Positions 3,798 to 37,800 of a DNA stretch of 64,000 bases are shown here, in pieces. The translations under genes and the position numbers were made by a program. The notes beneath the pieces are model-generated. The model saw only the letters and a list, made by a program, of their open reading frames with translations, was not told the origin of the DNA and searched no databases. This stretch comes from Squalus acanthias (Eukaryota), in the NCBI GenBank assembly GCA_030390025.1, contig JASTWF010000321.1, forward strand, positions 372,001 through 436,000, given 5' to 3'. Each line of letters starts with the position of its first letter. The stretch's first letter is position 1.

Positions 3798-4039
3798 GGG
3801 AGGGAAAATGCTAGAATCTATTATTAAGGACGTAGTAATGCAGGGCACTTAGAAAATAGTAATATGATTGGGCAGAGTCAACATGGTTTTTGAGATGCTC
3901 CTTAAAACCTACATCATCTGTCCTTATATCTCCTCATGTGACTCGGTGCCACATTTTGTTTGATAACACTCCTGTGAAGCAAATTGGATCATTTTACTAT
4001 GTTAAAGGCACTATATAAATGCAAGTTGTTGTTGCTTTA

Positions 4040-16628: not shown

Positions 16629-16652
16629 CTACATTAGCATTTCTATTCAATG

Positions 16653-18323
16653 TGTAGAATTCGCAATATTATCGCGATTTTATATAATAAGGAGGAGACA
16701 CATAGTTTCGTACAAACAGCTTTATTTCAGCAGAATGCTGTCAGGTTGTCAAAGTGGACAGAAGCATACCTGTAAAATGGCCGCCACGCCTCGTGGCAGA
16801 ACGTTCTAGACTTTCCGATAAGCAGACAAGATGGCGTTCCAATAAACATTTGTGCGAGATCGGACGAGACTCAGCACATTTGAGATAATTCACAAGACAT
16901 AATGGGTTTGCATTTTACACATAAATACTGGAATCGGTCTCCCAGGTGCGAATAAGGGCTATTGTACCAAGCGATCAAGAACCCATCCAAAGACATTAAT
17001 ATGCAAAATCCCCACGACTCTACGATGAGAGAGCCGTTTGCGGGTAGTTACAGAAAGCATTTGGAAGCCCCAAAACCCCTCCAGGGAGACTACTAGCCGG
17101 TTCCACAATGGGAGAAGTATTAACGGGTACTCAGACAGTTACAAGTATCACCGAAACCCATTAAAGACGGAGATCACCCTATACAAGAAGTTTGAGCGCC
17201 AAAACCCTGACAAAAGATAGACATTAAGATTGGGCGGGAAAAGAGGAATTGCAGCACTATAACTGTAAGGTACAACCGTCCATCTGCCTCTTGCCGCTTG
17301 CTCTTGACTTTTGGATCCTGACTCTTGCTGCTCGACTTGCTAGAAGACTTTTGAACTTTCTGATCCGCCAGGATCAACCTCGTGGCTTGCCGCGAAGATC
17401 TGTGGAGAACTGGGCTGTGAAGCCTTGAAACGGGCACACCATCCCGAGAAGTCGGTAAACGGTGTTGGAACCGAAGGCCCGAGATGAGATGAGATGAGAT
17501 GAGATGAGATGAGAAGAGAAGAAGACGACCATACGTATCGCCACGGTCAGTAAGCCCCGACCGCGCCTGTAGGTCGAATAAACACTTTTCTTGCCCAGGA
17601 AGACTATTCTTTGAGTTTTACAAACTGGCGTGAGGGCACAGGAAGACCATTCTTCGAGTTTTATCGCATCGGTGCGAGGGCACAGGAAGACTATTTTTCG
17701 AGTCGTGTCGGAACTCCGAGGACAACACAGATCTTCATGACAGCAGACGGTCCAGCCTGCTAGCCGGAGCAGAAACGAGTAAACAAGTGGGGTACAGAGA
17801 CCCCTGATCAACACGTGGGTGGTCAGGTGCTGCGGTAAAAACATCCGAGCAGAGTTTCGTAATTCTCCGAGTTATCACGAGTGGTGAGCATGAGTCTCGA
17901 TCCTACAAATCTAGTTTAGGACAGGTATTGATAGGGGAGGGTTTAAGTTTTAAGGATAATTGTAATGTGTGTCCCCTTTTACCTTTTACGATGTGTCGTG
18001 CGCTCCTCGTTTCCCTAAAATTAGTTACATAACTGCGTGTAAGATTGTACTGTCATTAATCTGTGCTTATGACATGTATTTCGTAATCTTGAATAATATG
18101 CAATAAAGATTTTCCATTTCACACTATTCAACCGGGTCTACCTGAGTTTTCTCATCATTATTGCTCTCGCACCTAAGTCCAGTGTCAGAACCGTAAGGGC
18201 GAGTGGGTCGAACCACTCACAGGTGCTTATTGCAACAAGGCTGGCCGGAGACCAGAGCAAGCAATAGTATTAGGCAACGAAGGCCTAACCCCGCACAAGC
18301 ACCACGAACCGTAACCCCTTACA
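16653..18323 (+). repeat. 5' LTR (1671 bp)
   Basis: Starts TGTAGAATTCGC, ends CCCCTTACA; homologous to 24339-28522 and, inverted, to 25481-27118; internal (GAGAT)n near 17480; AATAAA at 18102. Confidence 0.92.
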
Positions 18324-18328
18324 GAAAA

Positions 18329-18346
18329 TGGCGACCGCGGCAGGAC
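18329..18346 (+). promoter_or_regulatory. Primer-binding site, tRNA-Arg(UCG)
   Basis: TGGCGACCGCGGCAGGAC is the reverse complement of the vertebrate tRNA-Arg(UCG) 3' end GTCCTGCCGCGGTCG-CCA as I recall it; 5 nt after the LTR. Confidence 0.88.
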
Positions 18347-18381
18347 ATTGACAGCGAGAGAATAATGTGTTAGACCCTGGT

Positions 18382-20133
18382 ATGAATGGGCGAAATGTCA
18401 TGGAAGAGAGAATAGCAGATTATGTGTTTGGAAAAGTGAATTTGACTAAGAAATGGATAAGTGACCTGCTGGTTGATAAGCGTCCACTAGAGGCAGCCGA
18501 GAGGTGGACAGATAGCAAGGAACATAAAAAGGCAGTGGAGAAAGCGGTCTGGCTGATGTGCTATAAAAGATAAGTCCAAATTTCGGACCAGGTCATCTTA
18601 GCACAGGCAGCTCAGATCAAGAGTTTAGATGTGGAAATGGACGAGAAGGTCGCGGGGGGGCAGCAGCTCATCACGACTTTAAATGCGTTGCATCAAGAAC
18701 GCCAGTTAGTCGCCAACCACCATGAGGCAAAAATAGATTACCTCGAGTGCCAGGTCACTGAGGCAAAGTTAAATGAGGGCAGATTAAAGGAACGATGTGC
18801 CCGCCTAGCTGCCCAAATAAAAGTCCAGGAAGAGAGCTTAACGGGGGTTAGGGCGGCATATAAGATGGCCCTCGAGGATAAATTTCAGGGGGCCGATCAC
18901 AGCGTCTGCCAAAAAGAGATAGGGAACCTTAAAAAGGCCTTGAAGAAAGCGCACGGCATGGTGTGCCTTATCAGCCCGTCAGCACACCAGCCGCTAGTGG
19001 ATGAGGGATTTCAGAAATCCCCACCGAACAAAGCAGAGGAAGTATTAGCCACTGTGCCCTCCACGCCACCCAGCTATTCGGCAACCTGGGTGAGGGAGGA
19101 AGTGGTAGAAGTAGAGAAAGAGCCCACTGAGGTAGAAGTGAAGCCGGGACCGTTGTGTCCGGTCACGGGTATCAAGAGGGGCCCGAACAGAGACGGTGGG
19201 GCACAGGGGGATCTCCTCAACCAGCTTGTGTTGCCTCACAGCTCACACCAGCTGAGGGTTATGATCAGTCATGTACGGAAGCTGGCCGAGTCAGACGACC
19301 CTTCCGTACATTTCAGGGAAGTAGAGCAAACCGCAGCCATTAACGGCTGCGACGATGGGGAAAAAGCAAAAATGCTGTTATTCTCATTAGACAGCTCGAT
19401 CCTTCAGTGTCTCTCAGACGAGAGCAAGAGGGGAACTAATACCTATGGGGAGCTAAGAGATGAGGTCCTAGAAGTGTTGGGAATGGACGATGAAGGTCCG
19501 TTCGTTCGATTGGGACGAACAGTGCAGATGGAGGGAGAACCCCCGAAGGTTTTCGCCGACAGGCTGTGGCCAGTATACCAGCGTAGCTGCCCAGGCGCGC
19601 CAGCGCGTCACCGCATAGACGGTGTCGGTTTAACTCATTGGCTCAGGTGTATAGTAGCCAACAGTTTGCCAGCCGTCAGGGAGCAGGCCAAAGCATGGTT
19701 TGATCCCACTAACCCCGCCACTACAGAGGAGTCGGTCCTAAATCGACTCACGGTAGGGTACCGTAATACCAGGAGTACGGGAGCACGTCCCCTTAAGGGA
19801 AAGGTGCATGAGGCACGACCCGCAGCCCCGGCTCAAAAGGAGTGGCATCAGGAGGGTAACCGCGCCCCGCAGGCCAGTAATGCTTGTTACGGGTGTGGGA
19901 AGACAGGGCATTGGCGCAAGAACTGCAGGAACCCTTGGAAGGAGTCCAGGGATAAAAATCCCGCAGTCCGAGCCCAGGCGCCTATCTCCGATAGGGGAGC
20001 TAGTGCACCCATCCATCCCGATGCGATCGAATCAGTGTTGGGAGCCATGCGCACCCTCATGATTTCGCATGGAAGGGTGGCAGTTGCTACCGGCCCCACA
20101 GATGCCGCAGCCCCGTCCAACAGTACCCAATGA
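18382..20133 (+). pseudogene. gag: gag (~583 codons) with one premature TAA at 18571-18573
   Basis: ORFs 18367-18573 and 18631-20133 share a frame with a single stop between them; N-terminal coiled coil, MHR-like QMEGEPPKVFADRL (19525-19566), zinc knuckle CYGCGKTGHWRKNC (19885-19926). Confidence 0.85.
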
Positions 20134-21243
20134 CTAGAGCCCACGCAGCCTGCCTACCTGTGTCCTTTTAAAAGACACACACAGGAGGGGGTCTCTGGTA
20201 GGGAGGCCAGGTTAGAAGAGCAGGCCTTGCGGGAGGAGAACGCCCGTTTAATCGGGAAAGTAGATGGGCTGGAAGGGCAGCTTAGAGAGCAGGCCCTGCG
20301 GGAGGAGAACGCCCGCTTAATGGGAAAGTTAGACGTGCTCATGCTAGAAGCACAGCTTAGAGAGATAAAAGCAGCCTACAAGGTAGCCAGAAGCAGGGAT
20401 TTAAATCAGTGCAAACTGTATAAGCCGGGTGCACAAGGGCCAACCACAGGGGCCAAACCTGCGAGTGGGGACTCGCAGCCCCAGGTAGGGCCACAGGGCA
20501 CACAGGCAGGCAAAGCAGCTTGCATCAGGGGAGAGGACATCCTAGAAAAATGTGAGATATTTTATTGGGGTTGGGAGACAGATGAGGAAGAGTTCGAGGA
20601 GCTCGACGAAGATAGTGACACTAGCGAGGAGGAGCTGGAATCGGAGGACGAAAGGGTCGCCCCCGATTCAGGTATAGGGGAGACAGGGGCTGCAGATAGA
20701 GATCCACAAAGGGTGGAGGCCGAAGCTGCAGGTCCCGAACGCAGGGGGGCGGAGCTAGAGGAGGCGGAGCCAGCTGCTGTGGTGGGACCACAGGGCGTGG
20801 TGATGGAAGCCTCAGAGCCCGAGCCGCCCGCCTTGAACGTCTTGCCCTCGAGGGAGGTAGGGACTGCGAGTGAAGGGCCGCCTACTGGGCCAAGTAGGGC
20901 GGTGCCACAAGCTGCAGATCCCGAGTTCAGGGAGGCGGAGTCAGGGGAGGCGGAGCCAGCGACTGTGGTGGGACCACGGGTCGCCACGCTGGAAGTCTCG
21001 AAACCCGGTCCGTCAGTCCTGGAGTTCCTGCCCCCGGTAGTTCCCCGTAGGTCAAGTCGGAAACCCCAGCCCAGAAGGATATGGGTAAGTCCCCCGTATG
21101 TCCCCAGGCGTAAGTTCAAGGTCAAGGCAGCTCAGGGAGATCCCAGTCCCAGCGCAGCAGTGACAGGCTGCGGCAGATCAAAGGGAGGGGTCAATGCCCT
21201 CCCACCGTTGGGAGAAGCCTGCGGCAGCAACCGCAGAATTTGA
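20134..21243 (+). CDS. ORF X: in-frame gag read-through extension (369 aa; coiled coil, acidic tract, Pro/Ala/Glu repeats, basic tail), function unknown
   Basis: Open from the codon after gag TGA to 21243 in the gag frame; no protease/RT/RNase H/IN motifs. Confidence 0.65.
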   Translation, partial: LEPTQPAYLCPFKRHTQEGVSGREARLEEQALREENARLIGKVDGLEGQLREQALREENARLMGKLDVLMLEAQLREIKAAYKVARSRDLNQCKLYKPGAQGPTTGAKPASGDSQPQVGPQGTQAGKAACIRGEDILEKCEIFYWGWETDEEEFEELDEDSDTSEEELESEDERVAPDSGIGETGAADRDPQRVEAEAAGPERRGAELEEAEPAAVVGPQGVVMEASEPEPPALNVLPSREVGTASEGPPTGPSRAVPQAADPEFREAESGEAEPATVVGPRVATLEVSKPGPSVLEFLPPVVPRRSSRKPQPRRIWVSPPYVPRRKFKVKAAQGDPSPSAAVTGCGRSKGGVNALPPLGEACGSNRRI

Positions 21244-21540
21244 GTAGGCCGCCCTGGGAACAGGCGGCACTGTACAGTTATTAAGAAGAGTGATATGTTT
21301 AGGATGAGTTTATAAGTTTGAGTTTATAGTTTTAAATCAGGTTAAGTCGGTAGTTTAATTTTGTTAACAGAAAAAGGTAAAATGATGGGAGTTTTAGAGA
21401 TAGGAATAGTTAAAGTCTATCCAGCGCACATGTCTTCTTACGTGAGGCGAGGTCAGGGGACCCGCTCACCCTTCACAAAAGCCAGAGACTCTTGGGAGGC
21501 TGGCTACCTCATTCTATCTGATCACAGGAACCAAGGAAGG

Positions 21541-23892
21541 ATGGAACGAATTCTAGTGGTGCTCACGGCAATCGGATGTGGACTGGCCTATCGAGGCCGC
21601 ACCAAGGACGTCGTGGTGTTTGGATGCTCCGGGGACACGGCCCCCATCGCGGTGGATGGGACCGGAAGGCGAGAGGCTGAGGAGACCGCCACTTATTTCC
21701 ACAAGGGAAGGTGGCCAGGATGGCTGGGAACGAATTCAACTGAGTATTCCAGTACATCGGGTTTTGCCTACCAAGAGACTTCTTTAATGTGCCCCAAAGT
21801 GAGGATCATCGCACCCAGAGGCAGCGTCACCGTCGGCAAACGGATTTGTTTGACTTGTAGTGGGAATGTCCCATTGAGCCGATGGTGGTGGCTGCGAAAG
21901 CTGAGTAAAAACATGAGGAACTCTTCAGTCGAGTGGGAGCGACTGGGTAATAATACCCATCGGACAATTACGGGGACAAACGGACAAGTGAGAGTCTGTT
22001 GGGACAAATGGTGGGAACCGGATGAGGGAATTTATGTATGTATGTGGGGATCAAAGCACGTTTGCCCCAAAGGCATCTCCATATTTTTCATCAATCAATG
22101 GCAGGATAACGGACAGGGGATGAGGTGGGATGCGAGCACCAGGGGATGCGGAGCTCCATACTCTCCGATCCCGGTAAATGCCACTGAACTCATTACGCGC
22201 CCACGCAAAGCCCCGCCCACGATTCCGGTGGTTCTAGCTAAGGAAGAAGGGTGCCCTAAAACCAGTAAGGGACCCGGGAATGGTTTGGTACTGGTCCCCA
22301 CAGACCAGATACTATTTCAGGGGGTACATTACGCGGTGGCCTCGGTGATTTTAAATCTCACCGAGGTGCGGTTACCAGAGTGGTGCCCCAAAAAGACGGA
22401 ACAGTTATATCAGGTCCTGTTGACCAAGATGTTTAGGCAATTTTATGAGTTCGATTTCGCGGAAATTGATAAAACAAGTTTGTACACCGCACCACATGAA
22501 GTTTTGGGTCAGGTGGGGAGGCAAAGAAGGGGTGTTGTGAACGACATGTTCACTGCTTTCAATACAGGTACATCTGTGGTCAACGCTCTAGACAGCGTGG
22601 AGCTGCAGACCCAGATTAATGGTTTAAAAACACAATTAAAAAGCATTCTCACAGATGAAAATAAGGTGGTTGGGTCTGGGTTACACGAGGACCAGGCCAT
22701 GACTCTCCATTTAAAAGAAATAATATCTGAACTAGAGAAACATGCGCGTACGGTAAACGCCCTGATCAGGGAAGATCGGAATGCGTCCGATCAGGCTGCG
22801 CAGAACGATGTGTGCGTGCTTTACGGGGCGTGGTTACTGGGCGAGGGCCGCAGTAATTTGGAGGATTTAAAACAAGGTTTGGTCCCGTCCTGGATAAGTA
22901 ACAAACACCTGCAGGCGCTCCACCCTTTTCAGAACGCTTTAAGCCCGTGCCAGCTCAGACTAGCTTCAGAAGCATACCCAGTCCCCGTGGACTGCGGACG
23001 ATCAAACCATACCATCATGGGTATAGTATTACGTATGCCGGTTTTGGGCGACACAGCAAAGCCCGCCCCGGTGTATCGGGTAGAGAACATTGGTGTCATT
23101 CAGGGGGGAGCCCACATTCGCTATGCAGCGGTTCCACCTTACGTCATCCGCTGGGAGCAAACGATGACAGGTACAGATCTCTCTGGTTGTCGTGGCCGGG
23201 GAGCCCACATAATACTGTGTCCCCAGCACTTGAATGCCTTTTTAACACCGCAGTGCGGGTTCAGAACGGCTGGCGCCAAGCCCATGAATTGCACCATGGA
23301 GGCAATGGCGCAAGATCATGTGCCTCCGCAGGTAGCATACATCGGGGGTGGAACATATTGTGTTACCACTGCAGCGCAACACTACCAGCATGGAAACCGT
23401 AGCCGGTGTCCGGTGAGTGACAGCAGTTTCTGTTTTAAACCCAGGGCGGAAGCTCAAGTAGCACAACAGCGAATTGTCCCGATCCCTGAACCATCCACTG
23501 TTCATCTCACAGTAAAGGAGAATTTTACCGACTTGCAGCGATTCGTCGCGCATTTCGGATACCTCATTCCCCCTCTCCCTGAACACCTCACCAAACTTTT
23601 GAAAGCCGTCGCGGTATCGCAAAAACATTTTTACACACTAGAGCAAAAGACTGTCGAGATAGGGACAGAAATTCTGGACATAGTAATTCCACCATGGTGG
23701 GATCTGTTCGCCAACATTGAAGTCCCTTCCTGGATCAGAATAACCTCCCACATTTTAGTTGTATGCCAAGTGTTTATTGTGATATACTTATTGGTTGTGC
23801 ATTGTAAGAGAGGCAAACGCCTCACCAAGAACGAAAACATGGGAGAGTGGCGAGAACGTTACGTGTGCATGCACGATGAAAGCACCGCGTAA
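21541..23892 (+). CDS. env: Envelope glycoprotein, 783 aa: signal peptide, Ig-like domain, F-type class I fusion protein, TM
   Basis: MERILVVLTAIGCGLA signal; ICLTC..WWW..DEGIYVC; RQRR|GVVNDMFTAFNTGTSVVNALD (22519-22530); heptad repeat; Cys-rich region; TM ILVVCQVFIVIYLLVV; splice acceptor ..tctgatcacag| at 21527. Confidence 0.85.
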   Translation: MERILVVLTAIGCGLAYRGRTKDVVVFGCSGDTAPIAVDGTGRREAEETATYFHKGRWPGWLGTNSTEYSSTSGFAYQETSLMCPKVRIIAPRGSVTVGKRICLTCSGNVPLSRWWWLRKLSKNMRNSSVEWERLGNNTHRTITGTNGQVRVCWDKWWEPDEGIYVCMWGSKHVCPKGISIFFINQWQDNGQGMRWDASTRGCGAPYSPIPVNATELITRPRKAPPTIPVVLAKEEGCPKTSKGPGNGLVLVPTDQILFQGVHYAVASVILNLTEVRLPEWCPKKTEQLYQVLLTKMFRQFYEFDFAEIDKTSLYTAPHEVLGQVGRQRRGVVNDMFTAFNTGTSVVNALDSVELQTQINGLKTQLKSILTDENKVVGSGLHEDQAMTLHLKEIISELEKHARTVNALIREDRNASDQAAQNDVCVLYGAWLLGEGRSNLEDLKQGLVPSWISNKHLQALHPFQNALSPCQLRLASEAYPVPVDCGRSNHTIMGIVLRMPVLGDTAKPAPVYRVENIGVIQGGAHIRYAAVPPYVIRWEQTMTGTDLSGCRGRGAHIILCPQHLNAFLTPQCGFRTAGAKPMNCTMEAMAQDHVPPQVAYIGGGTYCVTTAAQHYQHGNRSRCPVSDSSFCFKPRAEAQVAQQRIVPIPEPSTVHLTVKENFTDLQRFVAHFGYLIPPLPEHLTKLLKAVAVSQKHFYTLEQKTVEIGTEILDIVIPPWWDLFANIEVPSWIRITSHILVVCQVFIVIYLLVVHCKRGKRLTKNENMGEWRERYVCMHDESTA

Positions 23893-24326
23893 ATAGATAA
23901 AATGGTGTCACTCCAGTTTTTCCACGTGCGCCTCAGAATTGTTGTAATTGATCGTGATTTTTCTCAGAAACTGTAATTAAGTTTGGAACTCTACATGTTT
24001 AAGAGTTGGTTTTGATTATTTTCATTTGGTGTTGTTGAATATGATTGTTTGGTTGTTTTTTGTTTTCTTTTTCCTTGAATAAAAAAATATGCATATGCAG
24101 GTGGTGCGAGAGGCATCGGCCTGGTTACACCTGGAAGGAAATACACGCGGTGTAAGTTAAAGGCAAATGCTGCCTACGGTGTTATAAGAATGTAATTTTC
24201 CTGGGAAATAAGGACGACACGGAGACCCTAGATAGTTTTAAGTTATGGGAATTTTTGGATATGGAGAATCGAGATAATATTGCTCACCACAATGTTTTTG
24301 ATACAATAAGCGGAGTTATTCGCATC

Positions 24327-24338
24327 AACAGGAGGGAC
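24327..24338 (+). promoter_or_regulatory. Polypurine tract
   Basis: AACAGGAGGGAC directly before the 3' LTR TG. Confidence 0.7.
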
Positions 24339-24506
24339 TGTAGAATTCGCAAAATTATCGCGATTTTATAAAAATAAGAAGGAGACATAAAGTTTCGTAT
24401 AAACAGCTTTATTTCAGCAGAATGCTGTCAGGTTTCAAAACGGACACAAACAGCCTGTAAAATGGCCGCCACGCCTCGTGGCAGAAAGTTCTAGACTTTC
24501 AGTAGG

Positions 24507-25413
24507 CATAGAAACATAGAAACATAGAAAATAGGTACAGGAGTAGACCATTCGGTCCTTCGAGCCTGCACCGCCATTCAATGCGTTCATGGCTGAACAT
24601 GCTACCTCAGTACCCCATTCCTGCTTTCTCGCCATACCCCTTGATCCCCTTAGTTGTGAGTATTATATCTAACTCCCTTTTGAATATATTTAGCGAACTG
24701 GCCTCAACAACCTTCTGTGGAAGAGAATTCCATAGATTCACCACTCTCTGGGTGAAGAAGTTCCTCCTCAGCTCAGTCCTAAATGGCTTCCCCTTAATCC
24801 TTAGACTGTGACCCCTGGTTCTAGTTTTCCCTACCATTGGGAACATTCTGCCCGCATCTAATTTGTCTAAACCAGTCAGGATTTTAAATGTCTCTATAAG
24901 ATCCCCCCTCATTCTTCTGAACTCCAGAGGATACAAGTTCAGTTGACCCAATCTTTCTTGATATGTCAGTCCGGCCATCCCAGGAATCAATCTAGTGAAC
25001 CTTCGCTGCACTCCCTCAATAGCAAGAATGTCCTTCCTTAAGTTAGGAGACCAAAACTGCGCACAATACTCCAGGTGTGGCCTCACCAAGGCCCTGTACA
25101 ACTGTAGCATCACCTCCCTACTCCTGTACTCAAATCCCCTTGCTATGAAGGCCATCATTCCGTTTGCTTTCTTGACTGCCTGCTGCACTTGCATTCCCAC
25201 CTTCAGTGACTGATGTACCATGACGCCCAGGTCTCGTTGCACGTCCCCTTTCCCTAATCTGCCACCATTCAGGTAATAGTCCGCCTCTCTATTTTTACCA
25301 CCAAAGTGGATAACCTCACATTTATCCACATTGTACTTCATCTGCCATACATTTGCCCATTCACTCAACCTGTCCAAGTCACTCTGTAGCCTCCTAGCAT
25401 CCTCCTCATTGTT
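24507..25413 (-). mobile_element. 5'-truncated CR1 inserted in the 3' LTR
   Basis: Uninterrupted RT C-terminal ORF (LQSDLDRLSEW...KGYGEKAGMGY) and (TTTCTATG)n tail. Confidence 0.92.
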
Positions 25414-25480
25414 CAGACAAGATGGCGTTCCAATAAGCATTTGTGCAAGATCGAAAAGATCCAACATGATGAGATAATGA

Positions 25481-27118
25481 TGTAAGGGATTCTGACCCTG
25501 CGTGTCTCGCAGCCTGTGAGATTCACGCGGCTCTGTGCAGCCTGTATGTCAGTGCGGGTCTAGGCCTTGTTGCCTGTTCTGGTCTCCAGCCAGTCTGGGA
25601 ACACTAGACACACCTGTGAGTGGTTCGAATCACTCTCCCTTACGGTTCTCGACACTGGACTTAGATGCGAGAGCAGTAATGGAGATGAAACTCATGTAGA
25701 CTCGGTTTGAATGGTACGAAATGGAAAATCTTTATTGCATGATACTTAAGATTATGAAATACATGTCATAAGCACAGATTAATGACAGTACAATCTTACA
25801 AACAGTTATATAGTCGATCTTAGGGAAACGAGGAACGAACGGCACATAGTAAATAGGGGCACACATTACAAATATCCTTAATCCTTAAACCCTCCCCTAT
25901 CAATATCTATCCTAAACTAGATTCGTAGGATTTCGAGACTCATGCTCACCACTCGTGATAACTCGGAGAAATTCCGAATAGCTGATCGGATGTTTTTCAC
26001 CGCAGCACCCACGTGTCAGTCAGGAGATCTCCTGGTCCCACTTGTTTACTTGCTTCTGCTGCTCCGGCTAGCAGGCTGGAACGTCTGCTGTGATGAAGAC
26101 CTGTGTTGGTTGGTTTAACAGGTACTTTCGAGCACAGTCCAGTTATATCATCGATGCGATATGTTTCGTTACAAGTTCGAAGAAGTCTTCCTGGCAAGGA
26201 AAACTTGGCTAATCGACCTACAGGCGCGGTCGGGATTTACTGACCGTGGCGATGGATATGGTCTTCCTCTCTTCTCATCTCATCTCATCTCATCTCATCT
26301 CATCTCGGGCCTTTGGTTCCGCTGCCAGTTACCAACATAGGTCTTCGTTACGCGACACGAGGTAGATCCGAACGGATCAGAAAGTTCAACAGTCCTTTTC
26401 AAAAGAGACAACAGGCAAGCAGGAGCGAGCCCAACTACGAGTACACAGGAGCAGCCACGAGGTTACGAATCGATCGGATAAGAGAAAGATGGACGGTTTG
26501 GAGCCTGCAATTATAGTGCAAAAATCTTCCGTTTCCCGCCCAACTATAATGTCCATTCTTTTGTTTAAGGTCTGGCGCTCAAAATGTCTTGTATGGGTGA
26601 TCTCCGTTCTTAATGGGTTTCGGGGCTACTCGTAAATGTCTGAGTACCTGTTAATATTTCTCCCATTGTTAAATCGGTCGGCGTTCTCCCTGGAGGGGTT
26701 TTGGGGCTTCCAAGTGTCCTGTATAACTACCTGCTAACGGCTCTCTCATCGTAGAGTCGTTGGGATTTTACATATTAATGTCTTTTGGATGGGCCCTTGA
26801 TTACTCGGTACAATGGCTTTCCTTTGTACCTGGGAGACCGATTTCAGTATTTATGTGTATACTGCAAACCCATAATGTCTCGTGTATTATCTTCACTGTG
26901 CTGAATCTTAATCGATCTTGCACAAATGTTTATTGGAACGCCATCTTGTCTGCCTGTTGAAAAGTCTAGAATGTTCTGTCACGAGGTGCGGCGGCCATTT
27001 TACAGGCTGCTTGTGTCCACTTTAAACCTGTCAGCATTCTGCTGAAATAAAAGCTGTTTGAACGAAACTCTGTGTTTTCTCCTTATTAATAAAATCGCGA
27101 TATATTGCGAATTCTACA
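25481..27118 (-). mobile_element. Solo LTR of a related subfamily, inverted inside the 3' LTR
   Basis: Reverse strand TGTAGAATTCGC...CCCTTACA, 1638 bp; flanked by ATGA/GTGA (4-bp TSD with one mismatch). Confidence 0.9.
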
Positions 27119-28522
27119 GTGACAAGACGCGATGGGTTTACATTTTAAACATGAATACTGAAATCGGTCTCCCAGGTGCAAACAAGGGCTATTGTACTGA
27201 GCGATCAAGGACCCATCCAAAGACATTAATATGCAAAATCCCCACGACTCTACGATGAGAGAGCCGTTTGCGGGTACTTACAGCAAGCATTTGGAAGCCC
27301 CAAAACCCCTCCAGGGAGACTACTAGCCGGTTCCACAATGGGAGAAATATTAACGGGTACTCAGACAGTTACAAGTGTCACCGAAACCCATTAAAGACTG
27401 AGATCACCCTATACAAGAAGTTTGAGCGCCAAAACCCTGACAAAAGATAGACATTAAGATTGGGCGGGAAAAGAGGAATTACAGCACTATAACTGTAAGG
27501 TACAACCGTCCATCTTTCTCTTGCTGCTTTGACTCGCTGGAAGGCTGCTGAACTTTTATTCTCTTGCCTGACGGCTCTGCACTCTGATCCGCTAGGATCA
27601 ACCTCGTGGCTTGCCGCGAAGATCTGTGGAGAACTGGGCTGTGAGGCCTGGAAGCGGGCGCACCATCCCGAGGGGTCGGTAAACGGAGTTGGAACCGAAG
27701 GCCCGAGAGGAGATGAGATGAGATGAGATGAGATGAGAAGAGAAGAAGACGACAATACGTATCGCCACGGTCAGTAAGCCCCGACCGCGCCTGTAAGTCG
27801 AATAAACACTTCTTTGAATTCTATCGGCTACTCCACAACTGGCCCAGGAAGACCCTTCTTCAAGTTCTATCGAATCGGTGTAGGGCACAGGAAGACTTTT
27901 TTTTGAGTAGTATCAGAACTCCAAGGGCAACACAGATCTTCATGACAGCAGACGGTCCAGCCAGCTAGCCGGAGCAGAAACGAGTAAACAAGTGGGGTAC
28001 AGAGACCCCTGATCAACACGTGGGTGGTCAGGTGCTGCGGTAAAAACATCCGAGCAGAGTTTCGGAATTCTCCGAGTTATCACGAGTGGTGAGCATGAGT
28101 CTCGATCCTACAAATCTAGATTAGGACAGGTATTGATAGGGGAGGGTTTAAGTTTTAAGGATAATTATAATGTGTGTCCCCTTTTACGATGTGTCGTGCG
28201 CTCCTCGTTTCCCTAAAATTAGTTTCATAACTGTGTGTAAGATTGTACTGTCATTAATCTGTGCTTATGACATGTATCTCGTAATCTTGAATAATATGCA
28301 ATAAAGATTTTCCATTTCGCACTATTCAACCGGGTCTGCCTGAGTTTTCTCTCCATTACTGCTCTCGCACCTAAGTCCAGTGTCAGAACCGTAAGGGCGA
28401 GTGGGTCGAACCACTCACACGTGTCTAGTGTTACCAGGCTGGCTGGAGACCAGAACAGGCAACAAGGCCTAACCTCGCACTAGCACCCAGGCTAAGCACA
28501 GAGCCACAGGTCACCCCTTACA

Positions 28523-30520
28523 ACAGTAAACTGGGCAAATCAGTTAATGGGTAAAACGACAAAAGATCAGTGGGAGATGTTTAAAAAATAATTTAAGGTG
28601 TTACAGAACCAGTTTATACCCCTGAGGGGCAAGAGCTCTACTTGCCAAAAAAGCCCATCCATGGACAACTAAAGAGGTAAAGGCCAGCATAAAACTAGAA
28701 AGGAAAGGGCATACAAAAATGCAAAAAATAGCACCGATCCTGGCGAATGGGAAAGATACAACGAACAGCAAAGGGTCACACAACAGTTAGTAAGAGCTAC
28801 AAAAAGGGAGTATGAAAAGAAACTTGCAAGGGATATCAAAATCAATGCGAAGAATTTTTACAATTACATTGGGAAAAAGAGGGTGGTCAGGAGCAAAGTT
28901 GGCCCCTTAAAAACAAAGTGGTGATATTGTCAATGACAATGGGGAAATGGCAGGCATGTTGAATAATTACCTTGCGTCAGTATTTACAGTAGAGAAAGAG
29001 GACAGCATGCCGGAAATCCTAAAGAAACTAATATTGAATCGGGGACAGGGGCTCAATAAAATTAACGTAAGTAAAGCAACAGTAATGAAGAAAATAATGG
29101 CACTAAAGAGTGACAAATCCTCAGGACCAGATGGTTTCCATCCCAGGGTTTTAAAGGAAGTAGGAGCACATTGCAGATGCCCTAATTATAATCTTCCAAA
29201 GTTCTCTAGATTCAGGAACCGTCCTTTCGTTTGGAAAATTGTACATGTTACTCCGCATTTTAAGAATGGCGAGAGAGGGAAACCAGTGAATTATAAACCA
29301 GTTAGCCTAACATCTGTTGTCGGGAAATGACTAGAGTCTATAATTAAGGATAGGGTGACTGAACAGCTCGAAAATTTTCAGCTGATCAGAGAGAGCCAGC
29401 ATGGATTTGTGAAAGGTACCATTAATTGGAGGGAAACTAAAATAAATCAAGGGAATGCACTTATTGTATTCAATATTAGTAATAAAATGGTAATGGAGAA
29501 AATAATGAGACTAGGTTAGATAAATCACCAGGACCTGATGGTTTCCATCCCACGGTATTAAAAGAAGTGGGGAAATTGCAGAAGCATTAGCTATAATCAT
29601 TCAAACTCTTGATTTGGGAACTATGCTGTTAAACTCAAAAATTGCAAATGTCAGTCCATTATTTAAGAAGGGTGGGAGAGAGAAAGCAGGTAACTACAGG
29701 CCTGTGAATTTAAAATCAATTGTGGGGACGCTACTAGAATCTCTCATTAGGGATAAAGTGACTGAGCACTTGTCCAAATATGAGCTGATCAGAGAGAGCC
29801 AGCATGGTAAGACTTGGGTTGGAAATTGGTTGGGAGGTAGGAGACAGTGATTGGGGATAAAGGGTTTGTACTCAGATTGGCAGAATGTGACAAGTGGATC
29901 TGTTCTGGAGCCTCAACTTTTTCCCATATTTATTACTTACTTGGATCAAGGAATAGAGCTGTATATCCAAGTTTCCAGAGGACACTAAAGTCAGAGACAC
30001 AGTAAGTAGTGCAGCTGGGAGCAGGAAGTTGCAAAACTATGTCAGATGGACAAGTGTGAGGTCGTCCACTTTGGACCTAAGAAAACTACATTTTCCAAAT
30101 GTTGGGAAACTAGGAACTGTAGAGGAGCAAAGAGATTTGGGAGTCTAACTCCACAAATCATTTAAAACTAGTCGACAGGTACAAAAAGTAATAAATAAGG
30201 CCAATGGAAATTTGGCCTTTATCTTAAGATGGCTGGATTACAAATAGGAAGAGTTGTAATCTTAACATTTGAACCATTTAGGATGAAAATCATGAAGTAC
30301 CTTTTCACACAAGTTATTAGAAATCTGGAATTCTCTCCCCAAACGGCTGTGGATTCTCGGACAAGTGGAGCTTCTAAGACTGAGATTGATAGATTTTAGT
30401 TGGGAAAGGCTAACAAGGGACATGGAGCAAAGGTGGGTAAATAGATTTGAGGCACAGATCAGCAATGATCTAATTGATTCGCATTGGAGGCTCGAGGGGC
30501 TGAATGGCCGACTCCTGTTC
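28523..30520 (+). mobile_element. Two or more degenerate CR1 ORF2 fragments
   Basis: LNNYLASVFTVE, KSSGPDGFHPRVLKEV, GNYRPV motifs repeated, with a decayed 3' UTR. Confidence 0.8.
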
Positions 30521-30832
30521 CTATCTTCCTTTCAATCTGCTTGGTTTCCAGTCAGGTTTCAGTGGCAAGTAACATTCGTGCCACACAAGTGCCAGGCAAT
30601 GACCATCTCCAAGAGAAAGTCTAACCACCACCCCTTGACATTCAATGGCATTACCATCGTCAAATCCCCCACCAACAACATCCTGGGGGTCACCATTGAC
30701 CAGAAACTTAACTGGACCAGCCACATAAATACTGTGGCAACAAGAGCGGGTCAGAGGCTGGGTATTCTGTGGCGAGTGTCTCAATAAATAAACTAAAACT
30801 AGAAAATTAATAAGTAATATAAGGGTTAAGTC

Positions 30833-31780
30833 ATGGCAGTAGAGCTCGGACCTGTGTCATGCTCCTCCTGTAACATGTGGGAAATCATGGACGCTTCCTG
30901 TGTCCCTGACAACCATGTGTGCGGGAAGTGTGTCCAGCTGCAGCTCATGTGGGACCGCATGACGGCCCTTGAGCTGCGGATGGACTCACTTTGGAGCATC
31001 CACGATTCTGAGAGGGTTGTGAATAGCACATTTAGTGAGTTGGTCACACCGCAGGTTAAGGCCAGAGTAGATAGTACATGGGTGACCAAAAGGCAGAGCA
31101 AGGGCAGGAAGGTAGTGCAGGAATCCCCTGGGGTTGTCTCCCTCAGCAACAGGTTCACCGCCTTAGGTGCTGTTGTCGGGGGGGATGACTCATCGGGGGA
31201 AGGCACCAGCAGCCAGGCTCATGGCACCATGACTGGCTCTGTTGCAAAGAAGGGAGGGAAAAAGAGTGGCAGGGCTATAGTAATAGGGGATTTGATTGTA
31301 AGGGGAATAGATAGGAGTTTCTGTGGTCGCGACCGAGACTCCAGGATGGTAATTTGCCTCCCTGGTGCAAGGGTCAAGGATGTCTCGGCGCGGGTGCAGA
31401 ACATTCTGGAGGGGGAGGGGGAACAGCCAGTTGTCGTGATACATGTTGGTACCAACGACGTAGCTAAAAAAAGGGAAGAGGTCCTACAAGTAGAATTTAG
31501 GGAGTTAGGAGCCAAGCTAAAAAGTAGGACCTCGAAGGTAGTAATCTCTGGATTACTACCAGTGCCACGTGCTAGTAAGAGTACAGAGAACAGGATAGTT
31601 AGGCTAAATACGTGGCTTGAGCAGTGGTGTAAGAGGGAGGGTTTTAAATTTTTGAGGCATTGGGACCAGTTTTGTGGTAGGTGTGACCTATACAAAAGGG
31701 ACGGTCTACACCTGTGCAAAGGTGGAACTGATGTTCTCGGGGTAAATTTTGATAAAGCAGTTCGGGAGCATTTAAACTAG
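30833..31780 (+). CDS. CR1 ORF1p (zinc finger, coiled coil, SGNH/GDSL esterase-like domain), 315 aa
   Basis: CSSC..CGKC; VIGD.IVR, CLPGARV, HVGTND and DGLHL blocks. Confidence 0.92.
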   Translation: MAVELGPVSCSSCNMWEIMDASCVPDNHVCGKCVQLQLMWDRMTALELRMDSLWSIHDSERVVNSTFSELVTPQVKARVDSTWVTKRQSKGRKVVQESPGVVSLSNRFTALGAVVGGDDSSGEGTSSQAHGTMTGSVAKKGGKKSGRAIVIGDLIVRGIDRSFCGRDRDSRMVICLPGARVKDVSARVQNILEGEGEQPVVVIHVGTNDVAKKREEVLQVEFRELGAKLKSRTSKVVISGLLPVPRASKSTENRIVRLNTWLEQWCKREGFKFLRHWDQFCGRCDLYKRDGLHLCKGGTDVLGVNFDKAVREHLN

Positions 31781-34722
31781 TATGGCAGGGGGCTAGAAAC
31801 CCATGTAGTGAAATAGAGGAAAGTGAAAGGCAGACAGAAATAAATGGTAAAAAGGAGAGGAACAAAAAACAAAGGGCCAAACTAATTCATAAAAAATGTG
31901 AGCATAAAAAAAGCCTGAGGGTTTTATACCTTAATGCGAGAAGCATCAGGAACAAGGTAGATGAATTAGCTGTGGAAATAGAGGTTAATAATTATGATCT
32001 AATTGGGATTACGGAAACATGGTTGCAGGGTGAGCAGGGCTGGGAGCTTAACATACAGGGGTATTCAGTATTTAGGAAGGATCGACAAAAAAGAAAGGGA
32101 GGAGGGGTAGCATTGCTGGTAAAAGAGGGGATAAATGCAATTGAAAGGAAGGATATTAACTCAGTTAATACAGAATCTATATGGGTGGAGCTAAGAAATA
32201 GCGAGGGGCGAAAAACATTAATAGGAGTGGTATATAGGCCTCCAAATAGTAAAATAGAGGTTGGGGAGGGCATCACGAGGGAAATTAGAGAAGCGTGCAA
32301 TAAGAGCACAGCTGTCATCATAGGTGACTTTAACTTACATATAGATTGGACTAGCCTAATCAGTAAAAATAATGAGGAGGAGGAATTCCTTGAGTGTTTA
32401 AGGGATGGTTATCTGGATCAATATGTCGAGGAACCAACTCGGGAACAGGCTATATTGGACTGGGTACTGTGCAATGAGAAGGGACTAATTAGTAATCTTG
32501 TTGTACGGGGACCCTTGGGTCAGAGCGATCATAACATGATCGATTTCTCACTCGAAATGGAGAGCGAAGAAATTGACTCAGAGACTCAGGTCCTGAATTT
32601 AAACAAGGGGAATTATGATGCCATTAGACGGGAACTGAGTAGGTCTGATTGGACAACGTTCCTGGGAGGACTGGAGGTAGATAAACAATGGCAAGCATTT
32701 AAAGATAGAATGACAAAATTGCAAAAATTGTTTATACCAATCTGGCATAAAAGGAAATCTAAAAAGGTGACTCAACCGTGGATAACAGGGGAAATTAGAG
32801 ACAGCATAAAATCCAAAGATAGGGCGTATAAAATAGCCAAAAAACGCGCCAGAGCGGAAGATTGGGAACAGTTTAAGATAGAGCAAAGGAGGGCAAAGGG
32901 CTTAATCAAGAAGGGCAAAATAGCTTACGAAAGCAAGCTGGCGGAAAATATAAAAACTAACTCCAAAAGCTTTTATAAGTATATCAAGAGGAAAAGACTG
33001 GTGAAAACCAAAGTTGGTCCATTGCAGTCAGATACGGGGGAATATATAATGGGAAATAAGGAAATGGCAGACCAACTAAATGCATACTTTGGGTCAGTCT
33101 TTACGAAGGAAGACACAAAAAACCTCCCTGGGATATCGGGAAAAATAGGGACATTGGCAAAGGAGGAACTGACGCAAATCAATATCTCTAAGGATATGGT
33201 GTTAAGGAAGCTAAAGGGATTGAAGGCGGACAAATCCCCAGGGCCTGATAACATGCATCCTAGGGTACTGAAGGAGGTGGCCCTAGAGATAGCGGATGCA
33301 CTAAGCATGATTTTTCAGAATTCATTAGACTCGGGAACAGTGCCCATGGATTGGAGGGTAGCTAACGTTACCCCACTATTCAAAAAGGGGGGTAGGGAAA
33401 AAGCAGGTAATTACAGACCTGTAAGCCTTACATCAGTTGTGGGCAAAATGCTGGAGTCCATCATTAAGGATGAAATAGCCGAGCACTTAGCAAATGGGGA
33501 CAGGATAGGACAGAGTCAACATGGATTTACAAAGGGTAAATCGTGCTTGACTAATCTATTGGAATTTTTTGAGGGAGTAACTGGTAAAATAGATGGGGGA
33601 GAGCCAGTAGATGTGGTGTACCTGGACTTCCAAAAGGCCTTCGATAAGGTCCCACATAAAAGATTAGCATGGAAAATTGAAGCTCATGGGATAAAGGGGA
33701 AAGTATTGACGTGGATAGAGAACTGGCTGTCAGATAGAAAACAGAGAGTTGGAATAAACGGCTCATTTTCTGAATGGCAGGCAGTAACAAGTGGGGTACC
33801 ACAGGGATCTGTCCTGGGTCCCCAGCTGTTCACAATTTATATTAATGACCTGGATCAGGGAGTCGAATGCAGCATTTCCAAATTTGCAGACGACACTAAA
33901 CTAGGAGGGGGGGTGGGCTCAGAGGAGGAGACCAGGAAGCTCCAGAGCGATTTGGACAGACTGGGTGATTGGGCGGATAAATGGCAGATGCACTATAATG
34001 TGGACAAGTGCGAAGTTATCCACCTTGGGTGCAGGAACGGGAGGGCAAATTATTATTTAAATGGCAATAAATTGGGAGAGGGGGAAGTACAGAGAGACCT
34101 GGGTGTTCTTGTACACCAGTCACTGAAGGCGAGCATGCAGGTGCAACAGGCGGTCAAGAAGGCAAACGGTATGCTGGCCTTCATAGCAAAAGGGTTGGAA
34201 TACAGGAACAGGGATACCTTGCTGCAGCTGTACAGGGCACTGGTGAGACCACACCTCGAGTACTGTGTACAGTTTTGGTCGCCTCATCTGAGGAAAGATG
34301 TTCTTGCCATGGAGGGGGTGCAGCGGCGATTCACCAGGCTGATACCAGGAATGGCGGGATTGACCTATGAGGAGAGACTATGTAGTTTAGGGATGTACAC
34401 ACTGGAGTTTAGAAGATTGAGAGGGGACCTCATAGAAGTGTATAAAATTCTGACAGGTCTAGACAGATTAGATGCAGAAGGAATGTTTCCCTTGGCGGGT
34501 GAGAACAGAACTAGAGGACATAATTTAAGGATAAGGGCTAAACCATTTAGGACAGAAATGAGGGGGAATTTCTTCACTCAGAGAGTGGTGAACCTGTGGA
34601 ACTCATTGCCACAGAGGGCAGTGTACGCCAGCTCATTAAATATATTTAAGAGGGAATTAGATATATTTCTACAGGCAAAAGGGGTTAAGGGTTACGGAGA
34701 GAAGGCGGGGACAGGATACTGA
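31756..34722 (+). CDS. CR1 ORF2p (APE endonuclease plus reverse transcriptase)
   Basis: Stop-to-stop frame open from 31756; YLNARS, ITETW, YRPP, GDFN, SDH; QHGF, LDFQKAFD, GVPQGSVLGP, FADD. Confidence 0.95.
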   Translation, partial: SSSGAFKLVWQGARNPCSEIEESERQTEINGKKERNKKQRAKLIHKKCEHKKSLRVLYLNARSIRNKVDELAVEIEVNNYDLIGITETWLQGEQGWELNIQGYSVFRKDRQKRKGGGVALLVKEGINAIERKDINSVNTESIWVELRNSEGRKTLIGVVYRPPNSKIEVGEGITREIREACNKSTAVIIGDFNLHIDWTSLISKNNEEEEFLECLRDGYLDQYVEEPTREQAILDWVLCNEKGLISNLVVRGPLGQSDHNMIDFSLEMESEEIDSETQVLNLNKGNYDAIRRELSRSDWTTFLGGLEVDKQWQAFKDRMTKLQKLFIPIWHKRKSKKVTQPWITGEIRDSIKSKDRAYKIAKKRARAEDWEQFKIEQRRAKGLIKKGKIAYESKLAENIKTNSKSFYKYIKRKRLVKTKVGPLQSDTGEYIMGNKEMADQLNAYFGSVFTKEDTKNLPGISGKIGTLAKEELTQINISKDMVLRKLKGLKADKSPGPDNMHPRVLKEVALEIADALSMIFQNSLDSGTVPMDWRVANVTPLFKKGGREKAGNYRPVSLTSVVGKMLESIIKDEIAEHLANGDRIGQSQHGFTKGKSCLTNLLEFFEGVTGKIDGGEPVDVVYLDFQKAFDKVPHKRLAWKIEAHGIKGKVLTWIENWLSDRKQRVGINGSFSEWQAVTSGVPQGSVLGPQLFTIYINDLDQGVECSISKFADDTKLGGGVGSEEETRKLQSDLDRLGDWADKWQMHYNVDKCEVIHLGCRNGRANYYLNGNKLGEGEVQRDLGVLVHQSLKASMQVQQAVKKANGMLAFIAKGLEYRNRDTLLQLYRALVRPHLEYCVQFWSPHLRKDVLAMEGVQRRFTRLIPGMAGLTYEERLCSLGMYTLEFRRLRGDLIEVYKILTGLDRLDAEGMFPLAGENRTRGHNLRIRAKPFRTEMRGNFFTQRVVNLWNSLPQRAVYASSLNIFKRELDIFLQAKGVKGYGEKAGTGY

Positions 34723-34828: not shown

Positions 34829-37800
34829 CTCCTGACTCCCCAAAGACTTTCCACCATCTACAAGGCACAAGTCAGGAGTGTGATGGAATACTTTCCACTT
34901 GCCTGGATGAGTGCAGCTCCAGTAACACTCAAAAAGCTCAACACCATCCAAGACAAAGCAGCCCGCTTGATTGGCATCTCATCCACCACCTTAAACATTC
35001 ACTCCCTCCACCACCTTAAACATTCACTCCCTCCACCGCCAGCGTACCGTGGCTGCAGTGTGTACCATCTACAAGATGCACTGCAGCAACTCATCAAGGC
35101 TTCTTTGACAGCACCTTCCAAACCCGCGACCTCTACCAGCTAGAAGGACAAGTGCAGGAGACGCATGGGAACACCATCACCTTCAAGTTCCCCTCCAAGT
35201 TACACACCATCCTGATTTGGAGATATATCACTGTTCCTTCATCGTCGTTGGGTCAAAATCCTGGATCTCCATCCCTAACAGCACTGTGGGAGTACCTTCA
35301 CCACAAGGACTGCAGCGGTTCAAGAAGGCGGCTCACCACCACCTTCTCAAGGGCAATTAGGGATGGGCAATAAATGCTGGCCTTGCCAGCGATGCCCACA
35401 TCCCAGGAACAAATAAAAAAAACCTCTTCTCTGCGTTGAATTTTATCTGTCATGTGTCCGCCCATTCCATTAGCCTGTCAATGTCTTCTTAAAGTCTATT
35501 GCTGTCTTCCTCGCTGTTTACTATATTTCCAAGTTTCGTGTCATCTGCCAATTTCGAAATTGTGCACTGTACCCCCCAAGTCCAAATCATTAATGTATAT
35601 CAAAAACAGCAGTAGTCCCAGTATTAAACCTTGGGGAAAGCCACTGTATACCTCCCTCCAGTCCGAACAACAGCCATTCACCACAACTCTGCTTTCTATC
35701 CTTTAGCCAATTTTGTATCCATGTTGCTACTGCCCCTTTTATCCCATGGGCTTCAATTTTGATAAAAAGCCGAATATGTGGTACTTTATCAATCACCTTT
35801 TGAAAGTCCATGTACACAACATCAACTGCACTGCCCTCATCCAAACTCTCCGTTACCTCATCAAAAAATTCAATCAAGATAGCCAAACACAATTTGCCCT
35901 TAACTAATCTGTGCTGGCTCTCCTTTATTAGCCCACGCTTGCCCATTTTCTCCCGAATTATTATTTCTAAAAGCTTCCCCACCACCGACGTTAAACTGAC
36001 TGGCCTATAATTGCCAGGTTTATCCTTCTCCCCTTTTTGAACAAGGGTGTAACATTTGCAATCCTCCAGCCCTCTGGCACCACCCCTGTATCTAAGGAGG
36101 ATTGGAAGGTTGTGGCCAGTACCTTTGCAAAATCTACCCTTACTTCCCTCAGCTACCTAGGATGCATCCCATCGTTCCGGGTGACTTATCCACTTTAATT
36201 ACCGCCAGCCTTTCTAGTAGCTCCTCTTTATCTATTTTTATCTCATCCAGTATCACAGCATCCTCCTCGTTTACCATAGCTTTGGCAAAGTCCTCTTCCT
36301 TGGTAAACTCTGATGCAAAGTACTCAGTTAGTACCTCCTGCCTCCACCAATAATTCTCCATTTTGGTCCCTAATCGGCCTCACTGCTCCTCTGACAACCC
36401 TTTTACTGTTAATATCCCTATAGAAGACCTTTGGATTCCCTCTTATGTTAGCTGCCTATCTATTCTCGTACTCTCTTGGCCACTCTTATTTACTTTATCA
36501 CTTGTCCTCTGTACTTTTTCTTCTCAGCCTGATTCTCCCTTGTTATTATCAAGCTGACATCTGTCATGTGCCCCCTTTATCTGCTCCATCCTACTCTCTA
36601 ACTCCCCAGTCATCCAGGGAGCTCTGGCTTTGGTTGCCCTCCCTTTCCCACTTGTGGGAACGTATCTAGGGAGGGAAAATGCTAGAATCTATTATTAAGG
36701 ACGTAGTAATGCAGGGCACTTAGAAAATAGTAATATGATTGGGCAGAGTCAACATGGTTTTTGAGATGCTCCTTAAAACCTACATCATCTGTCCTTATAT
36801 CTCCTCATGTGACTCGGTGCCACATTTTGTTTGATAACACTCCTGTGAAGCAAATTGGGTCATTTTACTATGTTAAAGGCACTATATAAATGCAAGTTGT
36901 TGTTGCTTTAGTGGTGTTGGTTGAGAGATTAACATTGGCCGGGATACCGTGAGAGCTCCCCTGCTCTTTTTCGAATAGTGCCATGGGATCTTTTATATCC
37001 ACCTGAGAGGGGAGATGAGGAGTTGGTTTAATGTCTCATCTGAAAGACGGCACCTTTAACAGTGTAGCACTCCCTCAGTACTGCACTGGAGTGTCAGCCT
37101 GAATTACATGCTCAACTCTCTGGAAGGGAATGTGGACCCACGATCTTCTGACTCAGAGGTGAGAGTGTTACCAACTGAGCTACAGCTGACACATGATCCT
37201 GGAGTTAGGTTCTGGAATACCACACTTGCCCTTGGTTTAATGTGTAATATATGTGGGCAGAACAAACGAAGAACAGAGACAGGATGAGTTGTTAGTCAAG
37301 GTGCTTGTTTACTAGGCCAGAATGAACTGAGCATGCTCATACTAAACCATGTGACAAACCATGTGATAATACATTACATAATGCAAACATCGACTCCTTC
37401 CTATCGCCCAAAGAGTGTCCCAAGGAATTAGGGAGTAAATTTCACGTAAATTCAAAGGTCACAGCACCACATGGTGTGTGAGGAAGAGACACAGGCAGAA
37501 GAAGGAAAAAAAACAACAGGGTTAGCAAAGTAGTCTGTGTGATTGTCTATGGTTTGGGGTTTACGGGTGTCAGCTTAGCTCGGATCAGAGCGCACAATGT
37601 AGGCCATGTAAGAATATCGATATGTTTTTGCATTACTTGTGTTTCTAACAAAGACAAAAAAGAAATCAAGAAACGGCTGAGTGCACTAGATCCAGCAAAG
37701 GCTATGGGCCCCGACAACATCCTGGCTGTCGTGCTGAAGACTTGTGCTCCAGGACTAGCCGCCCTTCTAGCCAAGCTTTTTCCAGTACAGCTACAACACT

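Follow-up and report, generated by a model that had tools for sequence, protein, structure and literature searches.

Open Reading Frame in the pol Slot of an Enzyme-less, env-bearing LTR Element of Squalus acanthias, Apparently Assembled from a Gag Coiled Coil and an Integrase Tail

RESULTS

Organization of the Element

The DNA analyzed here (the window) is a stretch of 64,000 nucleotides from Squalus acanthias. Open reading frame X lies within an element of the form LTR-gag-X-env-LTR, which is itself embedded in repeat-rich vertebrate DNA and is read from the forward (+) strand. The marks of an LTR retroelement are present. The 5′ LTR (16653–18323, ∼1.67 kb) has TG...CA ends and contains a (GAGAT)n tract; a sequence resembling a primer-binding site, beginning with TGG, is located 5 nt past this LTR (18329–18346); and a short purine tract (24330–24338) stands ahead of the 3′ LTR. 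The primer-binding-site-like sequence presumably resembles tRNA-Arg, and no tRNA gene was found within the 64-kb window. Between the LTRs, gag comprises 577 codons from the ATG at 18400 (18400–20133), with a second in-frame ATG at 18382, and is followed by X (20134–21243), by a spacer (21244–21540) in which candidate splice acceptors end at 21370 and 21527 and by an unbroken env-like frame of 783 residues (21541–23892). Although gag, X and env all occupy one reading frame (18325–23892), several stops separate X from env, and the shared frame is probably due to chance. No Pfam pol family corresponding to protease, reverse transcriptase, RNase H or integrase was detected in any of the six frames of 18324–24338 at E values up to 0.5.

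The 3′ LTR (24339–28522) is 89–91% identical to the 5′ LTR and is divided into three pieces by a LINE fragment (∼24507–25410) and an inverted solo LTR of the same family (25481–27118). The latter, which inserted within another LTR, is ∼76–85% identical to the 5′ LTR and has flanks that agree in 3 of 4 bases. No target-site duplication is formed by the sequences bordering the whole element (16649–16652 and 28523–28526), which belong to different repeats. The two LTRs may thus derive from different insertions joined through recombination, in which case their divergence provides no date for this copy.

Elsewhere in the window, an apparently young LINE, which we take to be CR1-like, was observed at 30830–34722 with two long open frames of 316 and 988 codons. 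A minisatellite of 7.7 kb (40633–48378; 32-nt unit, ∼240 copies, 92% matches) has an extreme strand skew that gives rise to long spurious ORFs. Two segments separated by 32.87 kb (2703–3972 and 35573–36843) share at least two blocks of 300 nt at 100% identity, as would result from a recent local duplication or from an assembly repeat.

gag and env-like Frames

The gag of this copy is broken by an in-frame stop at 18571–18573, and X and env are intact; given the break upstream, this copy is unable to make a full Gag-X product. The Gag protein has an N-terminal coiled coil, a capsid and one CCHC knuckle (E 0.0015). A structural model based on 11 sequences shows an N-terminal helix of 100 residues together with a domain that matches the C-terminal domain of the murine leukemia virus (MLV) capsid (VIA Z of 11.8 and rmsd of 2.5 over 86 aligned residues). 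MLV capsid was likewise the best Foldseek match of the model (E 1.2e-3). The end of the Gag coiled coil (18847–18870) carries a family motif that recurs as X residues 78–85.

Relatives of this Gag were named from catshark, whale shark and horn shark. Among more distant relatives, P0019 and P0029 include a Xenopus tropicalis protein (25% identity), and the lineage may thus extend outside cartilaginous fish. In three whale-shark gene models (P0012, P0014 and P0022), pieces of Gag appear by eye to be joined straight to env-like pieces, hinting at further pol-less derivatives or at gene-model artifacts.

The env-like protein has a hydrophobic N terminus, an RQRR site at residue 327 and a transmembrane stretch near residues 730–758, and its relatives were found in skate (76%) and sawshark (58%). 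Its likeness to the fusion (F) protein of paramyxo- and pneumoviruses was noted by eye; searches returned neither a Pfam F match nor a PDB sequence match. A single-sequence model (pLDDT 34) was too poor for structure searching, and one chordate cluster retrieved from the ESM Atlas at 0.84 is a lead only. Approximately 250 extra N-terminal residues (21541–22300) are retained in the skate relative and have weak immunoglobulin-like matches (Pfam Ig_3, E 0.51; junction adhesion molecule, E 0.67), from which a receptor-binding add-on is possibly to be read. A link to the syncytin-like env of chondrichthyans (10.64898/2026.05.06.723177) was rejected, given that the protein described in the available part of that preprint is a classical retroviral Env.

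Frame, Repeats and Tracts of X

ORF X (20134–21243, + strand) is a single stop-free frame of 369 codons. This length was reached in none of 2,000 first-order and none of 2,000 second-order Markov simulations of the same DNA, in which the longest frames were 261 and 304 codons, respectively. X is a stop-to-stop frame with its earliest methionine at residue 63 (20320).

An earlier note, made from the sequence alone, had described X as a modular protein with a tandem 23-residue repeat, an acidic tract, a second duplication and a basic tail, and all four were found. They are distributed over three segments: a stub (residues 1–25, 20134–20208), presumed from its position to be the N terminus of pol; a coiled-coil piece apparently derived from Gag (residues 26–88, 20209–20397); and what aligns as an integrase C-terminal tail, from the last SH3/GPY-type strand to the stop (residues 90–369, 20401–21243), which is of low complexity and likely disordered. 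The 69-nt (23-residue) tandem duplication lies in the coil, where 15 of 18 residues are identical between 20217–20270 and the sequence 69 nt further on. Within the tail, the acidic tract spans residues 148–173 (20575–20652), and a 186-nt (62-residue) duplication without gap or stop extends over 20710–21036; its copies, 20710–20850 and 20896–21036, are 74% identical and align gaplessly. A basic motif, RRSxKxxPR, follows (21037–21114; basic stretch at residues 302–327). The same note had held that both duplications keep the frame, which was borne out by their lengths of 69 and 186 nt and extends to a third: at 21163–21193, other copies of the element carry a 39-nt (13-codon) tandem duplication in four of four runs. 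All three lengths are multiples of 3.

Origin of the Coiled Coil

A Gag profile constructed without X scored X residues 26–93 at 19.7 bits. This value was reached by none of 1,000 plain, 1,000 heptad-keeping and 1,000 block shuffles (maxima of 4.9, 8.1 and 19.0 bits, respectively), and the best frame other than gag and X among the 368 ORFs of the window scored 2.2 bits. In pairwise tests of the coil, none of 500 shuffles scored as well as 6 of 14 Gag relatives or as the Gag of the element itself; P0011, P0026, P0030 and the control P0002 clearly failed. An 8-residue motif is common to X and the element's own Gag and recurs in 8 of the 31 proteins fetched, each of them a Gag relative. A Pfam match of the coil to Rab11-FIP3 (E 0.019, below the cut-off) was rejected as generic given the match to Gag. 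Residues 26–88 are thus, by homology, a Gag coiled-coil fragment, and the coiled coil itself is inferred from homology to a region of Gag predicted as one long helix.

The best partner of the coil is a whale-shark Gag fragment, P0023, with a score of 80 versus 60 for the element's own Gag, and no DNA-level match to the latter gene was found; the capture would therefore be old or from a sister lineage. The 69-nt repeat was absent from all nine Gags tested.

Origin of the Tail

An exhaustive phmmer search with Gag and X as the query yielded 27 matches, the best stretch of which fell in Gag for 26 and in X for P0007 alone. This protein aligned to X residues 90–358 with an E value of 9e-32 and 34% identity. 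Block scores exceeded the shuffle maxima both for residues 90–150 (179 versus 53) and for residues 301–369 (112.5 versus 56), and P0007 shares with X the acidic character of the tract and the basic motif but not the 62-residue duplication. Residues 12–49 of P0007 match SH3_Tf2-1 (E 0.0022, below the curated cut-off), and by eye its first 49 residues resemble integrase ends in the part of the lokiretrovirus supplement available (PMC7947760). Given that P0007 aligns to X directly behind this SH3/GPY-type domain, residues 90–369, acidic tract and basic motif included, are by homology to this one protein an integrase tail. The integrase end of P0007 thus carries the tail seen in X, which bears on whether an autonomous partner exists.

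Contig positions place a joint at the start of the tail. A contig from one run (X16) departs from the window at 20407, at most two codons from the start of the P0007 match, with 101 unrelated letters on its 5′ side, and at least five contigs from another run (X3) depart at 20399 on the 3′ side (both among the rows listed, 24 of 259). By position, the two departures are the same joint.

Wider searches were made for X and for a pol-bearing partner. Metagenome and viral collections queried with env, gag, P0007 and a Gag alignment returned no confirmed relative or pol-bearing locus, and a word-indexed protein search returned no match to X among 8,000 candidates and no longer Gag-Pol forms. The ESM Atlas gave no usable match to X, and the single PDB sequence match (E 0.51) was rejected.

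By sequence homology, ∼345 of the 369 residues of X can be assigned to known components of this element's own family. The earlier description of X as an unknown protein therefore no longer applies, and its coil is a Gag fragment. The suggestion that X occupies the pol position and keeps an integrase tail without the enzymes held up, with an aligned tail (residues 90–369) far larger than had been supposed. In all, a patchwork origin, in which a deleted pol was patched with a fragment of Gag, is very probable.

The Stop between gag and X

The gag stop, TGA (20131–20133), is followed by CTAG (20131–20137 for the whole context), and X begins one base after the TGA in gag's own frame, such that 369 open codons lie behind UGA-CUAG. 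Of the 2,081 TGAs in the window, 5 have this context, and none of the copy differences listed (40 of 511) falls within it. UGA CUAG is a readthrough context according to the available part of a previous report (10.1101/2021.04.18.440353). No stable RNA structure was predicted past the gag stop (z −1.56, with 17 of 200 shuffles equally good).

The same context recurs in the lokiretrovirus supplement (PMC7947760), the available part of which has at least 17 places reading TGACTAG, a count in which line breaks can mask matches. Four of these were placed by eye at a gag-pol boundary, three of them with a protease motif visible downstream. In the main text of that article, as far as available, the words readthrough, suppression and frameshift are never used; UGA-CUAG readthrough at lokiretrovirus gag-pol joints is thus suggested here and goes unmentioned there (PMC7947760).

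X does not behave as a free-standing gene, given that its earliest methionine is at residue 63 and that residues 26–88 and 90–369 trace to Gag and to an integrase tail. As judged from the reading frame, X would most simply be an in-frame extension of Gag made through candidate readthrough, and not a free protein. Of the earlier proposal that X may act as an accessory protein, a trans-acting form survives as a rival explanation (see "Discussion").

Spread of the Element

Part of the element was present in 20 of 22 listed runs, representing at least six organisms and nine studies. X itself was covered in 30 of 30 bins in each of four read runs from four organisms, stub and coil included, and two pieces bridge the stub and the coil without gaps. 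Among the pieces listed (32 of 3,957), none spans gag-X-env, and none crosses either the gag stop or the junction of coil and tail with 31 letters on both sides. Contigs that match residues 90–369 may derive from pol-bearing partners, and the 186- and 39-nt duplications may therefore date to selection on a full Pol.

DISCUSSION

Proposed Explanation

The explanation to which we assign an even chance is that X arose when a deleted pol was patched with gag sequence and is expressed as a minor Gag-X readthrough product, which would act in cis and whose frame would have been kept by selection. Template switches during reverse transcription would have removed protease, reverse transcriptase, RNase H and the integrase core, and the same switches would have brought in the piece of Gag, nearest to that of a sister lineage. 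Ribosomes would pass the UGA at a low rate, as in the parent they presumably did for Gag-Pol. By analogy with the mouse intracisternal A particle (IAP) element 1Δ1 only, Gag-X would act in cis, and, on the same analogy, an additional coil resembling that of Gag would, together with the disordered tail, anchor the RNA-protein complex in helper particles. Gag-X might in this way help an enzyme-less element to be packaged and copied by intact relatives. That the frame was kept by selection as the family spread is read from the duplications and from the scarcity of indels.

Selection on Frame and on Residues

Whether the product is selected at all is the point on which the next explanation differs. 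Here, the patchwork origin is the same, and X is a passive leftover: the frame of the tail would be inherited from pol, the joints would be in frame by chance, and the region would be retained for RNA signals, such as an env splice acceptor, or for genome length. We consider this possible but clearly less probable than the selected readthrough product. The candidate splice acceptors directly 3′ of X favor it, as do other non-autonomous endogenous retroviruses that, in the available part of a published study, retain the flanks round a swapped center without functional genes (PMC10924933). In addition, X was picked for being open, and random double junctions would both be in frame in one case in nine.

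The copies of the two duplications give different pictures of the residues. The 62-residue copies have a dN/dS of 1.01, indicating no amino acid constraint and fitting a passive region; the 23-residue copies have a dN/dS of 0.23 (4 of 8 differences synonymous, p 0.08), which is a trend only. Among the copy differences listed (40 of 511), 8 of 21 in X were synonymous, no better than the 34% expected, and this lack of a synonymous excess also fits passive retention. Given that gag fared no better in the same list (3 of 11), the synonymous test has little power.

The frame itself gives more support to selection. The 69-nt repeat, specific to X and in frame, is old, with its copies differing at 37% of synonymous sites (CI 11–69%). 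At the rate of frame-breaking gaps found in the LTRs (10 per 102 mismatches), 4.9 frameshifts would be expected in stub and coil, with a lower bound of 1.4, and none was seen (P 0.24–0.008). Indel events overall were fewer in X than in the spacer (2 versus 6, p 0.001; among the rows listed, 12 of 37), a comparison to be read with the AT-rich nature of the spacer. For uncompensated indels the contrast was not significant (1 versus 2, p 0.10; among the same 12 of 37 rows), which again favors a passive region. Amino acid constraint on X is thus weak or absent, and the overall pattern is that expected where the frame counts for more than the residues it encodes. Selection on the protein, as argued in the earlier note from the duplications, is accordingly visible at the level of the frame and is not clear at that of the residues (dN/dS of 1.0 in one duplication; 0.23 with p 0.08 in the other).

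Action in trans and a Simple Deletion

An accessory or interference factor acting in trans is unlikely, although several features would suit it. Gag-X, an X freed by the helper's protease or a product initiated at Met-63 would enter particles via the Gag-like coil, and a nuclear or chromatin-binding tail would steer the helper's integration complex or compete with it. The integrase tails of MLV and Ty5 are, in the available part of the literature cited, short disordered tethers to chromatin proteins (PMC4176367), so that the nuclear or chromatin targeting proposed in the earlier note may still apply; X retains a full tail with the basic motif that is common to P0007; and the 23-residue repeat of the coil trends toward constraint. 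Against this, a tail severed from its integrase would have no direct grip on viral DNA, a benefit in trans would be common to all copies and hence weakly selected, and no match to a targeting domain was obtained from Pfam, PDB or the Atlas.

Least probable, and by a long way improbable in itself, is a single deletion that joined two ends of pol without any capture from gag, the coil having already stood at the N terminus of the intact partner's Pol: that no match at the DNA level links the coil to the element's own gag is in its favor, but the coil contains the family motif of Gag, and its highest-scoring partner is the whale-shark Gag fragment P0023. In the available lokiretrovirus sequences, moreover, protease begins no more than ∼60–75 codons past the readthrough stop, with no coil seen by eye (PMC7947760).

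Comparison with Known Systems

The closest parallel to the selected Gag-X readthrough product is mouse IAP 1Δ1, in which, according to the available parts of two reports, the Gag-Pol fusion created by a deletion promotes retrotransposition in cis, with the enzymes supplied in trans (PMC6466679, PMC7411935). The two share an internal deletion, an open frame from gag into a pol remnant, a need for enzymes in trans and, presumably, spread as a family. In the present element, gag, its stop and X likewise lie in one frame, and the fusion requires readthrough of that stop. The present element differs in retaining a full-length gag, the stop with its readthrough context and env, in having no detectable enzyme domain and in carrying an inserted, duplicated piece of the Gag coil. 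Moreover, the cis function is reported for IAP 1Δ1 and is proposed for X by inference only.

Several features are shared with lokiretroviruses, as far as these can be compared from the available text and supplement (PMC7947760): a Gag with an N-terminal coiled coil ("smc") and an MLV-like capsid, a combination that is not unique to lokiretroviruses; TGA-CTAG at the gag-pol boundary in four places of the supplement; by eye, the same integrase end motif as in P0007; and an env with a basic cleavage site and a layout that is similar by eye. By contrast, lokiretroviruses are unreported from cartilaginous fish in that source although three such genomes are in the study's list, their integrases end ∼10–25 residues past the domain (six passages) versus ∼220 in P0007, and the present Gag has a CCHC knuckle (PMC7947760). 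The BHIKHARI elements are described, in the available part of the report, as pol-less lokiretrovirus derivatives, of which Bik-2 lacks env as well as pol (10.1101/2024.03.25.586437).

The replacement of the center of pol by a piece of another retroelement, with the gag and env flanks retained and mobilization in trans, has a counterpart in the swapped-center non-autonomous endogenous retroviruses covered in the available part of a published study, namely the bovine ERVK D-type, RecKoRV of koala and ETn/MusD of mouse (PMC10924933). The bovine D-type has no intact ORFs there (PMC10924933), whereas the present element has an open env and an in-frame replacement that a readthrough context connects to gag.

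Ty3/gypsy elements that carry an F-type env share the LTR-gag-pol-env layout and, through P0007, an SH3/GPY-type integrase end (10.1101/2023.10.26.564294). According to the available part of that report, no intact vertebrate element is homologous to its invertebrate set (10.1101/2023.10.26.564294), and an F-type env is supported by no tool for the element described here. Given that the element has no reverse transcriptase, it is filed neither under lokiretroviruses nor under Gypsy. Troyka was also considered and does not fit, its ends being CG in the available description (PMC12440569) and those of the present element TG...CA.

A broader reading, which we put forward as speculation, is that env-bearing, enzyme-less proviruses across several cartilaginous fish have converted the pol slot to encode a readthrough adaptor, maintained by selection, through which the defective genome outcompetes its helper for Pol. 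Such an adaptor would consist of Gag, extra copies of its own coil and a 280-residue integrase tail, and, as part of the same doubtful reading, the parent would belong to a loki-like or F-env lineage of sharks and rays that has yet to be described and whose integrase tails are unusually long.

Significance

If the frame of X has truly been selected, the element would represent a second example, of independent origin, in which a defective retroelement benefits from the in-frame fusion of Gag to a pol remnant. It would stand in contrast to IAP 1Δ1 in having retained env and the readthrough stop and in having rebuilt the slot from the Gag coil. If the frame is passive, the element would be an ordinary deletion derivative. 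The element also indicates that sharks and skates harbor an env-bearing LTR lineage, for which a literature search of sources other than subscription journals and Repbase listed no published description.
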